DNA from: Escherichia coli
GTDB taxonomy: Bacteria; Pseudomonadota; Gammaproteobacteria; Enterobacterales; Enterobacteriaceae
Assembly (NCBI RefSeq): GCF_003334335.1
Contig: NZ_QOWQ01000026.1
Reading direction: 5' to 3' (one strand)
DNA length: 64,000 nucleotides
Below, piece by piece: positions 9,895 to 27,684 of the stretch. Under the pieces are notes generated by a model, which was given only the letters and a program-made list of their open reading frames with translations, made no database searches and had not been told where the DNA came from. The position numbers were made by a program, and so were the translations under genes. Numbering within the stretch: the first letter of the stretch is position 1; each line of letters begins with the position of its first letter.

Positions 9895-9983
9895 ACCCGC
9901 TTTCTCGTCTGCTGTAATATTCCCCACTACACTTCCACTGTTGCGTCAGGCGTTTGTCGCCATACGCTTACAGGGTGGCCCGC

Positions 9984-11582
9984 ATGCAAAAAGCACAACG
10001 GATCATTAAAACCTATCGTCGTAATCGAATGATTGTTTGTACGATTTGCGCACTCGTTACGCTCGCTTCGACCCTGAGCGTGCGATTTATTTCACAGCGT
10101 AACTTAAATCAACAACGGGTAGTACAATTCGCCAATCACGCTGTAGAGGAATTAGATAAAGTACTGCTTCCCCTACAGGCAGGTAGCGAAGTCTTGCTTC
10201 CGCTGATTGGTCTGCCCTGCTCTGTCGCCCATTTGCCATTACGTAAACAGGCGGCAAAACTCCAAACTGTGCGATCCATTGGCCTGGTGCAAGACGGCAC
10301 ACTTTATTGCTCCAGCATTTTTGGTTATCGCAATGTGCCCGTCGTGGACATTCTGGCTGAACTTCCTGCACCGCAACCACTTTTACGCCTGACGATCGAC
10401 CGTGCCCTGATTAAAGGCAGTCCGGTTTTGATTCAATGGACGCCTGCAGCGGGCAGTAGCAATGCTGGGGTCATGGAGATGATTAACATCGACTTACTGA
10501 CGGCAATGCTGCTTGAGCCACAACTGCCGCAAATCAGTAGCGCCAGCCTGACGGTGGACAAACGGCATTTGCTCTATGGTAATGGGCTGGTAGATTCCCT
10601 TCCGCAACCTGAAGACAATGAAAACTATCAGGTTTCTTCGCAACGCTTTCCTTTTACCATTAACGTTAATGGTCCGGGGGCTACGGCGCTGGCATGGCAC
10701 TATCTTCCAACACAATTACCGCTGGCGGTGCTGCTAAGTTTACTGGTGGGCTACATCGCCTGGCTGGCGACCGCTTACCGAATGAGCTTTTCCCGCGAAA
10801 TCAATCTGGGCCTGGCGCAACATGAGTTCGAATTGTTCTGTCAGCCTTTGCTTAATGCGCGCAGCCAGCAATGTATTGGTGTAGAGATTTTGCTGCGCTG
10901 GAACAATCCGCGTCAGGGCTGGATTTCACCGGATGTGTTTATTCCTATCGCGGAAGAACATCATTTAATTGTGCCACTGACCCGCTATGTGATGGCAGAA
11001 ACCATTCGTCAGCGCCATGTTTTCCCGATGAGTAGTCAGTTTCATGTTGGCATTAACGTCGCACCCAGCCATTTTCGCCGTGGTGTGCTGATAAAAGATC
11101 TCAATCAGTACTGGTTTAGCGCTCACCCGATTCAGCAACTGATCCTCGAAATCACCGAACGCGATGCCTTACTGGATGTTGATTATCGGATTGCCCGCGA
11201 GCTGCATCGTAAAAACGTCAAACTGGCGATTGATGACTTCGGCACCGGCAACAGCTCGTTTTCCTGGCTTGAAACATTACGTCCTGACGTGCTGAAAATT
11301 GATAAGTCATTTACCGCAGCTATAGGTTCTGACGCGGTTAACTCGACGGTGACCGATATCATCATCGCGCTGGGGCAAAGACTGAATATTGAACTGGTGG
11401 CGGAGGGCGTGGAAACGCAAGAACAGGCGAAGTATTTGCGCCGTCATGGCGTGCATATTTTGCAAGGGTATTTGTACGCACAGCCGATGCCGCTACGTGA
11501 TTTTCCCAAATGGCTGGCGGGCAGCCAACCGCCGCCCGCCCGGCATAATGGACATATCACGCCCATTATGCCGTTACGTTAA
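9984..11582 (+). CDS. pdeD: c-di-GMP phosphodiesterase PdeD (YoaD), CSS-motif periplasmic domain plus EAL domain
   Basis: ORF track 9954..11582 trimmed to the ATG at 9984 (532 aa); membrane-anchored N-terminus; C-terminal EAL-domain motifs (e.g. DDFGTGNSS). Confidence 0.88.
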   Translation: MQKAQRIIKTYRRNRMIVCTICALVTLASTLSVRFISQRNLNQQRVVQFANHAVEELDKVLLPLQAGSEVLLPLIGLPCSVAHLPLRKQAAKLQTVRSIGLVQDGTLYCSSIFGYRNVPVVDILAELPAPQPLLRLTIDRALIKGSPVLIQWTPAAGSSNAGVMEMINIDLLTAMLLEPQLPQISSASLTVDKRHLLYGNGLVDSLPQPEDNENYQVSSQRFPFTINVNGPGATALAWHYLPTQLPLAVLLSLLVGYIAWLATAYRMSFSREINLGLAQHEFELFCQPLLNARSQQCIGVEILLRWNNPRQGWISPDVFIPIAEEHHLIVPLTRYVMAETIRQRHVFPMSSQFHVGINVAPSHFRRGVLIKDLNQYWFSAHPIQQLILEITERDALLDVDYRIARELHRKNVKLAIDDFGTGNSSFSWLETLRPDVLKIDKSFTAAIGSDAVNSTVTDIIIALGQRLNIELVAEGVETQEQAKYLRRHGVHILQGYLYAQPMPLRDFPKWLAGSQPPPARHNGHITPIMPLR

Positions 11583-24323: not shown

Positions 24324-26372
24324 TTACTTGACGGGAGCGGGTTGTTCCGCGGGTCTGGCTTTTTCAAGCTTCGCCAGATCGAGTGCGATATTCACCGTCT
24401 CATCCAGATAAGGATCCGGCTCCTGGTAATCTTTAGGTAGATCATCCAGCTTCTTCAACTCCGGTTTACCTTCGCGTTTAAAGCGTTCGTTCAAACGCGC
24501 CAGACGCGTCGCATCATCTTCATTATTCTCTTTCTCACGCACAGCGTAGTTCAGAGAAACGATATTGCGCTTGTCCTTCATAGCGTTGAAGCGCGCGATA
24601 TCCTTCATGATGTTCTGGAACTCAGGATCTTTCGCGATACGCGCATTATGTTCCTTCAGCAGCTCCGGCCCAAAGGCCGTTAAATCGCCTGATTTCACAT
24701 AAGTCGCGGCATCAATGCTATCCCACGGCAGCGCGTTATCTTCGAATTTCTCACCCGTTTCCGTTTCTTCATTACCCGTCGGCATGATGATGTCTGGCGT
24801 TACGCCTTTACGTTGCGTACTGCCGCCGTTAACGCGATAGAATTTCTGGATCGTGTACTGCACAGAACCCAGCGCTGGCCATTCAGGACGTAACATCTGA
24901 TCGTAAATACGGTTCAATGAACGGTATTGCTGAACGGTGCCTTTACCAAACGTCGGTTCACCCACAACCAGCGCACGACCGTAATCCTGCATTGCCGCGG
25001 CAAAGATTTCTGAAGCCGAAGCACTGAAACGGTCAACCAGTACCACCAGCGGGCCTTTATAGAACACCTGCCCGTCGGTATCGCTGTCTTCACGAACCTT
25101 GCCGTTGTTATCGCGGACCTGAACAATGGGACCCGCAGGAATAAACAGACCTGAGAGCGATACCGCTTCGGTCAGCGCCCCACCGCCATTGCTACGCAGG
25201 TCGATGATCACACTGCTGACATTCTGTTTTTCCAGTTTCTGCAGTTGAACTTTGACATCGTCTGTCAAACCCACATAGAAGCCCGGAATATCCAGCACGC
25301 CGACTTTCTCTTTACCGACGGTCTTCACCGACATTTTAACCGCGCGGTCTTCGAGACGAATACGTTCACGGGTCAATGTTACAGTGCGGGTCTTGGTCCC
25401 TTTACCAGCAGGTAAAATTTCCAGACGAACTTTACTGCCCTTCGGCCCTTTAATTAAGGCAACCACATCATCAAGACGCCAGCCAATCACGTCAACCATC
25501 GGCTTGCCTGTTTGACCAACACCGACAATTTTGTCACCAACGCTGATAGCTTTACTCTTCGCTGCCGGACCACCTGCCACCATCGAATTGATAACGGTGT
25601 AGTCATCATCCATTTGCAGCACTGCGCCAATACCTTCCAGCGACAAACTCATTTCAGTGTTGAACTGTTCGGTATTACGCGGGGAAAGATAGTTGGTATG
25701 CGGGTCGATTTCACGCGCAAACGCCGTCATTGCCAGCGAGAAAACATCTTCGCTGTTGGTTTGCGCCAGACGACGAATGGCAAATTTGTAGCGGCGTGTC
25801 AGGGTTTCACGAATTTCTTTATCCGTTTTTCCTGCCAGCTTCAGGCTTAACTCGTCGAATTTGACTTTACTGTCCCACAGCGCGTTCAACTCAGCCTCGT
25901 TTTTCGGCCAGGGCGCTTTGCTGCGGTCAAGGTTATAAGTGTCGTTGCCGGTGAAATCCATCGGCTTTTCCAGTACCGACAAAGCGTACTGGTAACGCTC
26001 AAAACGGCGCTTTTGCGCCAGATTGTAGAGATCGTAGAAAACGTCGAGTTTGCCTGAACGCAGTTCATCGCCTAACTCGGTTTTCTTTTTCGCGAACTGT
26101 TCAACATCGCTTGCCAGCAGCACGTTGTGGCTGTAATCGAGCAGATTCAGGTAGCGGTCAAAGATTTTGGCCGAAAATGCCTGATCGAGGTCGAACTGGC
26201 GATAATGAGAACGGGTGAAGCGCGACGTTACGCGCTCACTTACCGTCGCATGCTGCGTCTCTTCCTTTAATACCGGAATTTGATCAGCACGCGTGATATC
26301 TTCTACAGCGAAGGTCTGGCCTGCTATTGCAAGCAGGCCAGCTAACGCGGTAAGCCTAAAAAACATGTTCAT
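24324..26372 (-). CDS. prc: Tail-specific periplasmic protease Prc (Tsp)
   Basis: ORF track 24324..26420 trimmed to the ATG at 26372 (MNMFFRLTALAGLL..., 682 aa); PDZ and S41 peptidase regions. Confidence 0.93.
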   Translation of the reverse strand: MNMFFRLTALAGLLAIAGQTFAVEDITRADQIPVLKEETQHATVSERVTSRFTRSHYRQFDLDQAFSAKIFDRYLNLLDYSHNVLLASDVEQFAKKKTELGDELRSGKLDVFYDLYNLAQKRRFERYQYALSVLEKPMDFTGNDTYNLDRSKAPWPKNEAELNALWDSKVKFDELSLKLAGKTDKEIRETLTRRYKFAIRRLAQTNSEDVFSLAMTAFAREIDPHTNYLSPRNTEQFNTEMSLSLEGIGAVLQMDDDYTVINSMVAGGPAAKSKAISVGDKIVGVGQTGKPMVDVIGWRLDDVVALIKGPKGSKVRLEILPAGKGTKTRTVTLTRERIRLEDRAVKMSVKTVGKEKVGVLDIPGFYVGLTDDVKVQLQKLEKQNVSSVIIDLRSNGGGALTEAVSLSGLFIPAGPIVQVRDNNGKVREDSDTDGQVFYKGPLVVLVDRFSASASEIFAAAMQDYGRALVVGEPTFGKGTVQQYRSLNRIYDQMLRPEWPALGSVQYTIQKFYRVNGGSTQRKGVTPDIIMPTGNEETETGEKFEDNALPWDSIDAATYVKSGDLTAFGPELLKEHNARIAKDPEFQNIMKDIARFNAMKDKRNIVSLNYAVREKENNEDDATRLARLNERFKREGKPELKKLDDLPKDYQEPDPYLDETVNIALDLAKLEKARPAEQPAPVK

Positions 26373-26391: not shown

Positions 26392-27090
26392 TCAGAACAC
26401 CAGGTGTTCTGCGCGCACAATCAAAGACATACCCGAATTCAGCTGGACGCGGACGCCGTCTTTGGTGATTTCTAATACGGTGGCATCCATCGCGTTTTGA
26501 CCCGCTTTCACCTTCAGAGCTTGTCCGACAGTCAGAGCTGAAATGTCAGAAACCGGGGTGTGCTGTTCTTCGCGAGGTGCTTTTACTGTTTTTGGCGCTT
26601 TCTCTACCGGCTTTTGCGCACGAGGTTTACGTTCAGCGCCTTCTTTGCGGCGTGGCGTGGTCGGACGTGGCTTGCGTTCGCGGCGCGGTGCGTCTTCTTT
26701 CTCACCAGCAGCTGCGGCAGCTTCGCGTTTTTTCGCTTGCTGTTCAGCACGCTGTGCCTGAACACGCGCTTTCGCTTCTTCAAGCTGCTTGCGAGCATGC
26801 TCTACATGTTGCTCGTCCAGCTCACCGCATGGGTTGCCGTCAAGATCGACACGCGTTGCGCCGGGTTTAACACCGTAAAGATAACGCCAGCTCGAAGTGT
26901 AGAGACGTAAAGCGGATCGTAATTGCGTTTTGCTCAGGTTCATTTCCCCGGCAACACGATCGACCAAATCCTGAAAAATACCGATTTTCAGCGGACGCGC
27001 TTCACCTTCCGCACTGAAACAGTGGGGAAAACGTTCGGCCAGAAACGCGATTACTTCTTTACTGCTATTCAACTTAGGTTGATTTTCCAT
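26392..27090 (-). CDS. proQ: RNA chaperone ProQ (FinO-like)
   Basis: ORF track 232 aa; FinO-like N-terminal domain, basic Ala/Lys/Arg-rich linker, C-terminal Tudor-like domain. Confidence 0.95.
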
Positions 27091-27186
27091 GAAATTTCCT
27101 GATTACAACGGACGTAGCCAACAAGCGCAGGCATGAACAGGCGTCATTATAATGACGCTACCAGTAAATGCTACGTTATCCGTTGA

Positions 27187-27684
27187 TTATCCTGCGACGC
27201 TCGCAAAGAATTTTTTGTAATCCGTCGTTGCAAGCACTTTTTCAAGCTGTGCCACAAGCTGACGTAAGCCTTGCTCGTCCTCGTCTGTAAAGCGACCGAA
27301 GACGGTACTATCGATGTCGAGAACACCAATAATCTGATTTTTCACCACCAGCGGCAGAACAATTTCAGAATTACTCGCCGCATCACAGGCAATATGCCCG
27401 TCAAACGCGTGAACATCCTCGATACGCTGCACTTGATTGCGGGCAACCGCAGTGCCGCACACCCCGCGCCCGACGGGTATCCGGACACAGGCAATTTTGC
27501 CCTGAAATGGTCCGAGTACCAGTGTATCGTCCTCAAGCAAATAAAAACCTGCCCAGTTTACGTCAGTGAGACGCTCGTATAACAACGCACTGGTGTTCGC
27601 AAGCGTTGCCAGAAAACTGGTTTCTCCTGCCATCAGCGCGTTAAAGTCGCGATTTAAATCCGCGTAAAATTCTGTTTTGTTCAT
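27187..27684 (-). CDS. msrC: Free methionine-(R)-sulfoxide reductase MsrC (GAF domain)
   Basis: ORF track 27187..27738 trimmed to the ATG at 27684 (MNKTEFYADLNRDF..., 165 aa). Confidence 0.88.
   Translation of the reverse strand: MNKTEFYADLNRDFNALMAGETSFLATLANTSALLYERLTDVNWAGFYLLEDDTLVLGPFQGKIACVRIPVGRGVCGTAVARNQVQRIEDVHAFDGHIACDAASNSEIVLPLVVKNQIIGVLDIDSTVFGRFTDEDEQGLRQLVAQLEKVLATTDYKKFFASVAG

Follow-up and report, generated by a model that had tools for sequence, protein, structure and literature searches.

The spacer between msrC and proQ in Escherichia coli carries a perfect inverted repeat with TATAAT near its centre, and this raises the question of whether the symmetry is itself functional, as an operator laid over a promoter, as a bidirectional promoter or as an RNA hairpin, or whether it is incidental to an ordinary promoter. 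An earlier note on this DNA drew attention to the repeat and suggested an operator overlapping a promoter or a bidirectional element. We analysed the repeat in the window, i.e. the whole 64,000-nucleotide stretch from contig NZ_QOWQ01000026.1, where it is surrounded by the following genes:

24324-26372, minus strand: prc coding sequence (tail-specific protease), downstream of proQ.
26392-27090, minus strand: proQ coding sequence, encoding the RNA chaperone ProQ; the promoter discussed here drives this gene.
27187-27684, minus strand: msrC (yebR) coding sequence, upstream of and co-directional with proQ; its stop codon TAA lies at 27187-27189.

Because msrC and proQ both lie on the minus strand, msrC is arranged in tandem with and upstream of proQ; msrC had been described as convergent with proQ, which is wrong, as msrC, proQ and prc all share this strand. 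According to PMC8264596, which cites RegulonDB, proQ and prc are co-transcribed, and transcriptomes of Dickeya likewise show a promoter between yebR and proQ and co-transcription of proQ and prc. Of note, two published transcription start sites (TSSs) fall inside the proQ coding region, at window positions 26466 and 26564 on the minus strand (94 and 192 nt upstream of prc), and the row for proQ in the portion of the RpoD genomic-SELEX data retrieved lists a peak between prc and proQ; therefore, prc probably has internal promoters of its own besides its co-transcription with proQ.

The repeat was described as a perfect 18-bp inverted repeat with TATAAT near its centre, about 55 bp upstream of the proQ start, and both parts of this description hold:

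27141-27158, no strand assigned: perfect 18-bp palindrome GCGTCATTATAATGACGC, covering -20 to -3 of the proQ promoter relative to the mapped TSS.

The palindrome is spacer-free, can be written as the dyad GCGTCAT-N4-ATGACGC and lies within the 96-bp msrC-proQ spacer (27091-27186), starting 28 nt from the msrC stop codon. Symmetry stops at the flanking bases 27140 (g) and 27159 (t), with no extension beyond them. Its proximal edge is 50 nt and its symmetry centre 59-60 nt from the proQ ATG (A at 27090), so that the distance of about 55 bp is acceptable. TATAAT is present on both strands (27148-27153 on the plus strand and 27146-27151 on the minus strand), the two hexamers overlapping by 4 bp with an offset of 2 bp; each is displaced by 1 bp from the symmetry centre, where the actual palindromic core reads ATTATAAT. 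The 901 bp around the palindrome are 100% identical to strain CP53 and have a match in 5425 of 5426 complete genomes. Two perfect palindromes of at least 18 bp were observed in the window against 0.3 expected from Markov-1 shuffles, while for an 18-bp palindrome on a ATTATAAT core the expectation is about 0.002 per window, or about 0.07 per genome. Because of this low expectation pure chance is unlikely as the origin of the symmetry, with the qualification that the estimate is post hoc, having been computed once the feature had already been singled out. The other perfect 18-bp palindrome of the window, ACCATTAACGTTAATGGT at 10656-10673, lies within a 542-codon open reading frame (9954-11582, plus strand) and most likely arose by chance.

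Kim et al. 2012 mapped TSSs in E. coli K-12 by 5' RACE deep sequencing with Terminator-exonuclease enrichment of 5'-triphosphate RNA, and their Table S1 lists a proQ start at NC_000913.2 1913606 on the minus strand with a 48-nt 5'UTR; the 50-mer given upstream of it is AATCAACGGATAACGTAGCATTTACTGATAGCGTCATTATAATGACGCCTG, ending ...TATAATGACGCCTG / ...GCGTCATTATAATGACGCCTG. Placed through the K-12 locus, this start defines the following elements:

27138, minus strand: mapped proQ TSS, a G (NC_000913.2 1913606 = NC_000913.3 1915582).
27146-27151, minus strand: -10 hexamer TATAAT, 6 of 6 matches, at -13 to -8, with the TSS 8 nt downstream.
27169-27174, minus strand: -35-like hexamer GTAGCA, 3 of 6 matches, at -36 to -31 with a 17-bp spacer, in conserved columns.
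27139-27145, minus strand: GC-rich discriminator GACGCCT, formed by the palindrome's right arm and two further bases.
27091-27138, minus strand: proQ 5'UTR, 48 nt, nearly invariant across Enterobacteriaceae.

Because the TSS lies at 27138 on the minus strand, it is the minus-strand TATAAT that occupies -13 to -8. The reading of TATAAT as the -10 element of the proQ promoter is thus borne out, by the published TSS 8 nt downstream and by conservation of the element and of its distance to the ATG; mapping of the proQ start had been proposed as a check, and the published map places it 8 nt past TATAAT and 48 nt before the ATG. Based on these data, we consider it likely that the palindrome is the core of a sigma-70-type promoter that drives the proQ(-prc) transcription unit, sigma-70 being the factor that its elements imply. 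In the mechanism that we propose, the holoenzyme would recognise the consensus -10 hexamer at 27146-27151 on the minus strand with little help from the weak -35 element GTAGCA, and initiation at G 27138 would yield a proQ(-prc) mRNA whose leader is 48 nt long. The left arm of the palindrome would then be the promoter-proximal portion of the spacer, and the right arm plus two bases the discriminator. The dyad would be incidental because ATTATAAT is self-complementary and the GC-rich bases flanking it happen to mirror each other. The promoter core is as such ordinary and, being present in public TSS maps, already known.

Direct TSS support for this promoter comes from the single dataset of Kim et al. 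2012, with 18 reads; the TSS supplements of Ettwiller 2016, Yan 2018, Warman 2026 and Middlemiss 2023 have no entry for this site. Indirect support for an upstream TSS is provided by the 5'UTR table of Adams et al. 2021, which retains an RNA 3' end within the proQ leader, at +24: the filter behind this table requires that the first upstream feature is a dRNA-seq TSS, or a stop codon with a TSS within 200 bp, and discards 3' ends with a TSS at most 20 bp upstream. A consensus promoter scan of the window called no promoter at this position, because it required 4 of 6 matches per hexamer and the -35-like element has 3 of 6. In the retrieved portion of the RpoD genomic-SELEX data there is no peak for the msrC-proQ spacer; therefore, RNA polymerase alone may bind weakly here and an activator may be needed. 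Together with the block CAACGGATAAC at -47 to -37, which is invariant and has no assigned function, the SELEX result leaves room for an activator acting at the proQ promoter. Kim et al. 2012 also list a second 5' end at 27090 on the minus strand, the A of the proQ ATG, with 12 reads in E. coli, and a 5' end at the orthologous ATG position in Klebsiella pneumoniae with 28 reads, tabulated by the authors as leaderless mRNA. This 5' end at the proQ start codon could be a genuine leaderless start or a processing site.

To follow the locus through evolution, we collected it from 80 Enterobacteriaceae species and from more distant taxa, giving 88 Enterobacterales species in total. Because the list of E. 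coli ProQ homologues gave close relatives only, the distant taxa were obtained through 50%-identity representatives and a second search that started from the Edwardsiella protein; they comprise Edwardsiella, Hafnia, Serratia, Yersinia, Enterobacillus, a metagenomic taxon whose ProQ is 63% identical and a reduced genome of 1.15 Mb. Mean pairwise identities were calculated on 81 Enterobacteriaceae sequences:

Whole msrC-proQ spacer: 0.937.
Palindrome: 0.948.
proQ 5'UTR: 0.959, with 37 of 48 columns invariant.
Positions -47 to -1: 0.920.
proQ codon positions 1 and 2: 0.967.
proQ third codon positions: 0.63.
msrC third codon positions: 0.49.

The spacer, in which 70% of the columns are invariant in the 81 species, thus comes close to proQ codon positions 1 and 2 in its conservation; the palindrome is conserved no better than the spacer and the 5'UTR around it. 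Among the conserved parts are stretches to which no function has been assigned, namely CAACGGATAAC at -47 to -37 and the greater part of the 48-nt leader. The minus-strand TATAAT is invariant in 81 of 81 Enterobacteriaceae and reads TATACT in the reduced genome (L085). At -5 to -1 the discriminator is 96-100% conserved, and the -35-like hexamer improves to GTGGCA (4 of 6) in Yersinia, Serratia and Cedecea. Nearly all 88 species, Yersinia, Serratia, Hafnia and Edwardsiella among them, retain the element TCATTATAATG together with its spacing from the ATG (58-61 nt when measured from the symmetry centre); taxon L083 and the reduced genome show slight deviations. L083 has a divergent TetR-family gene upstream in place of msrC and retains CGTAGCATTTA...TATAATGACGCCTGTT, including the -35 element, the -10 element and the discriminator. 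Because the promoter block is retained there without msrC, we conclude that it serves proQ and not the msrC 3' end. In the alignment, variable columns cluster at -30 to -19, which is the pattern expected of a promoter spacer.

Two further observations concern the otherwise invariant proQ leader. Its main variable spot is a 1-nt indel at +13 to +17 (window region 27121-27125, minus strand), where the sequence is GCG-CTTG or GCGGCTTG and which splits the Enterobacteriaceae about half and half. We also considered a 14-codon open reading frame in the spacer (ATG ACG CCT ... TAA), the ATG of which lies inside the right arm of the palindrome, and rejected it because the 1-nt indel (GCG/GCGG) breaks the frame in about half of the species.

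If the symmetry were the functional property of the site, the two arms would be expected to be kept alike. The earlier note had proposed conservation across the family as a check, and the outcome is divided in that the core promoter block is deeply kept while the dyad symmetry itself is often lost. The uninterrupted perfect palindrome has a length of 20 bp in 22 of the 88 species, 18 bp in 18, 16 bp in 10, 14 bp in three, 10 bp in 33, and 6 bp and 4 bp in one each; i.e. it measures 18-20 bp in 40 species and at most 10 bp in 35. The 20-bp form is common to Yersinia, Salmonella, Citrobacter, Raoultella and Enterobacter, a sharing that is improbable by chance. Position by position, the arms in the 81 Enterobacteriaceae differ as follows:

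Pair -6/-17: -6 is A in 51 species, T in 30 and never G or C; -17 is T in 81 of 81.
Pair -20/-3: -20 is G in 65 species and A in 16; -3 is C in 81 of 81.
Flanking pair -21/-2: -21 is variable; -2 is C in 96%.

Among the 53 distinct sequences, none of the seven palindrome pairs is altered on both sides. Four of the seven depart from symmetry solely through broken pairs, the pair -17/-6 being broken in 22 of the 53. In the distant taxa it is the left arm that degenerates, to GCCTCAT in Edwardsiella, GCGCCAT in Hafnia and GCGTGTT in L083, while the right arm with the start region, TAATG[A/T]CGCCTGTT, is maintained. Judged from these alignments, selection acts on each arm separately and not on the symmetry, and the conservation pattern of the palindrome is that of a directional promoter rather than that of a selected hairpin or a symmetric operator.

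These data bear most directly on the possibility that a dimeric DNA-binding protein sits on the dyad GCGTCAT-N4-ATGACGC, covers the -10 element and represses proQ-prc. Such a protein would find a perfect dyad of 18-20 bp in nearly half of the species, of a kind rarely expected by chance, overlapping the -10 element and the TSS in the classic position of a repressor, and it would give a reason for invariant left-arm bases that have no obvious contact with RNA polymerase. In this respect the site resembles palindromic operators over -10 elements, at which a repressor acts by steric block and the dyad is likewise centred on the -10 element and reaches the start-site region. It differs from them in that its half-sites are unequally conserved, no second site was found and no cognate protein is known. 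A mirrored change in one arm never accompanies a change in the other, the palindrome shrinks to 10 bp or less in more than a third of the species, it is no better kept than the rest of the spacer, and copies of the dyad or half-site elsewhere in the 64-kb window are no more frequent than expected by chance. Literature searches returned no regulator of proQ and no binding peak for the msrC-proQ spacer. In an informal comparison, none of the operator consensuses considered (Fur, Zur, ArgR, Fis, CRP, LexA and others) fits the dyad. Because the arms evolve independently, there is no support for a separate operator, and we regard repression through the dyad as very unlikely; this applies to the operator proposed earlier as far as it is defined by the dyad.

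The left arm carries some constraint that the reading as a proQ promoter does not explain, because GTCAT at -18 to -14 is invariant in the 81 Enterobacteriaceae although it is not an extended -10 element (there is no TG). This invariance would be accounted for if the plus-strand TATAAT also recruited RNA polymerase and produced an antisense RNA running from 27160/27161 into the msrC 3' end, the left arm being kept as the plus-strand discriminator:

27148-27153, plus strand: mirror TATAAT, putative divergent -10 element antisense to msrC, with a start near 27160/27161.

A start of this kind would add to the proQ promoter and not replace it. In the terms of Warman et al. 2021, as described in PMC12825309 and PMC10268837, bidirectional (pseudo-symmetrical) promoters are divergent TSS pairs 7-25 bp apart, 23 bp being a common spacing, and the commonest class has an 18-bp spacing with reciprocal pairing of -7T and -11A. 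The msrC-proQ site shares with these promoters -10 elements on opposite strands that have a few base pairs in common, here two consensus hexamers overlapping by 4 bp, and the mapped TSS and its mirror image would be 22-23 bp apart, within the range of 7-25 bp; on the plus strand, the base where transcription would begin, A at 27160 (complementary to T at -22), is 94% conserved. It departs from the Warman et al. promoters in having one documented start, hexamers offset by 2 bp and a symmetry of 18-20 bp that exceeds what their model needs. Moreover, the datasets examined contain no plus-strand TSS, the sole dataset with rows for this locus listing gene-assigned starts only. The plus strand has neither a -35 element (GCGCAG, 1 of 6) nor an extended -10 element, and in Hafnia, Edwardsiella and L083 it is the left arm that erodes while the right arm stays. 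For these reasons, divergent initiation at the palindrome appears unlikely to us.

The third possibility is that the palindrome acts in RNA, i.e. that read-through RNA from msrC folds it into a 7-bp stem-loop serving as a terminator, as a stabiliser or as an autoregulatory hairpin bound by ProQ. The stem-loop has a predicted stability of -9.2 kcal/mol as RNA (z = -2.8; -6.9 kcal/mol as DNA) and would begin those 28 nt past the msrC stop codon. A strong 3' end in Term-seq data lies 26 nt downstream of the stem:

27115, minus strand: strong RNA 3' end that falls at +24 in the proQ leader and precedes the ATG by 25 nt (Adams et al. 2021, NC_000913.3 1915559).

The 75-nt RNA from the stop codon to this 3' end can adopt a single long, imperfect hairpin (-21.7 kcal/mol, z = -1.9) whose tip is the palindrome. 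Moreover, an inverted repeat, CAACGGA(TA)ACGTAGC ... GCTACGTCCGTTG, flanks the promoter at 27170-27185 and 27106-27118 on the minus strand, and in read-through RNA the hairpin of the palindrome would lie inside this long-range repeat (-27.5 kcal/mol, z = -1.8); the z-scores of the two larger folds with the palindrome at the stem tip, -1.8 and -1.9, are marginal. As in Rho-independent terminators between tandem genes, a GC-containing stem-loop thus follows soon after a stop codon. Unlike in those terminators, the stem is followed by CUGUUCAUG / CUGUUCAUGCC with no U-tract, the 3' end is 26 nt past the stem, too distant for intrinsic termination, and more than a third of the species have a broken stem; no terminator was called on the minus strand. 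The central U-A pair is a U.U mismatch in 37% of the 81 Enterobacteriaceae species, and the sequence is kept in L083, which lacks msrC. We tested three structures, namely the palindrome hairpin, the hairpin with the outer stem CAACGGA..ACGUAGC/GCUACGUCCGUUG and the long hairpin to the mapped 3' end, and each has zero or one compensatory pair, no more than shuffles give. The long-range repeat shows no compensatory changes, and 38 of the 53 distinct sequences have a mismatch at its A-U pair -34/+23. A search of Rfam at a permissive threshold gave a chance miRNA match and no other. A function of the palindrome as an RNA hairpin is therefore highly improbable.

The 3' end at 27115 itself deserves attention. 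It has scores of 103591 and 41034, is not Rho-dependent and, with a score of 2.43, falls short of the intrinsic-terminator cut-off of 3. We read four columns of the table of Adams et al. as up- and downstream counts without and with bicyclomycin, a reading that reproduces the listed Rho score of 0.96; accordingly, read coverage at this end is 221 downstream versus 126 upstream. The higher downstream coverage would fit msrC transcripts that end at 27115 and proQ transcripts that start at +1. The site is probably the 3' end of the msrC mRNA, with a 72-nt 3'UTR overlapping the proQ promoter; it could also be the end of a short leader RNA. A second strong Term-seq 3' end, at 26997 on the minus strand (NC_000913.3 1915441), lies 93 nt inside the proQ open reading frame; it has scores of 44086 and 66213, is not Rho-dependent and may reflect premature termination or processing of the proQ mRNA.

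Returning to the palindrome as the core of the proQ promoter, its architecture resembles that of the rrn P1-type promoters, which combine a perfect -10 hexamer and a poor -35 hexamer with a GC-rich, slightly long discriminator, form unstable open complexes and are controlled by ppGpp/DksA. The rrnB P1 discriminator is GCGCCACC, and the stringently controlled class to which it belongs is known from work of the Gourse laboratory. The proQ promoter shares with the rrnB P1 type the perfect TATAAT, the poor -35 element, the 17-bp spacer, the GC-rich discriminator and initiation 8 nt past the hexamer, and it differs in having no evident UP element or Fis sites. By analogy with this class, open complexes at the proQ promoter would be short-lived and the promoter may be sensitive to growth rate and to ppGpp/DksA.

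Among the RNA-binding regulators of enterobacteria ProQ is a major one, and no description of its own transcriptional control was found in the literature searched. Fixing the promoter, i.e. its -10 element, weak -35 element, GC-rich discriminator and 48-nt leader, and showing that selection on the two arms is asymmetric, removes the tempting operator hypothesis. Taken together, it is quite unlikely that the dyad has a function of its own, be it as the operator of an undescribed regulator of ProQ or as a ProQ-bound autoregulatory hairpin in msrC read-through RNA; if it did, the perfect 20-bp form seen from Yersinia to Salmonella may be the ancestral state, and control of a global RNA chaperone would be placed at an unusually conserved 96-bp spacer with a strong 3' end at +24. 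The conservation of the whole spacer may serve specialists more than the palindrome. Combined with the abundant 3' end in the leader, this conservation points to, and suggests, a so far undescribed control of proQ expression.
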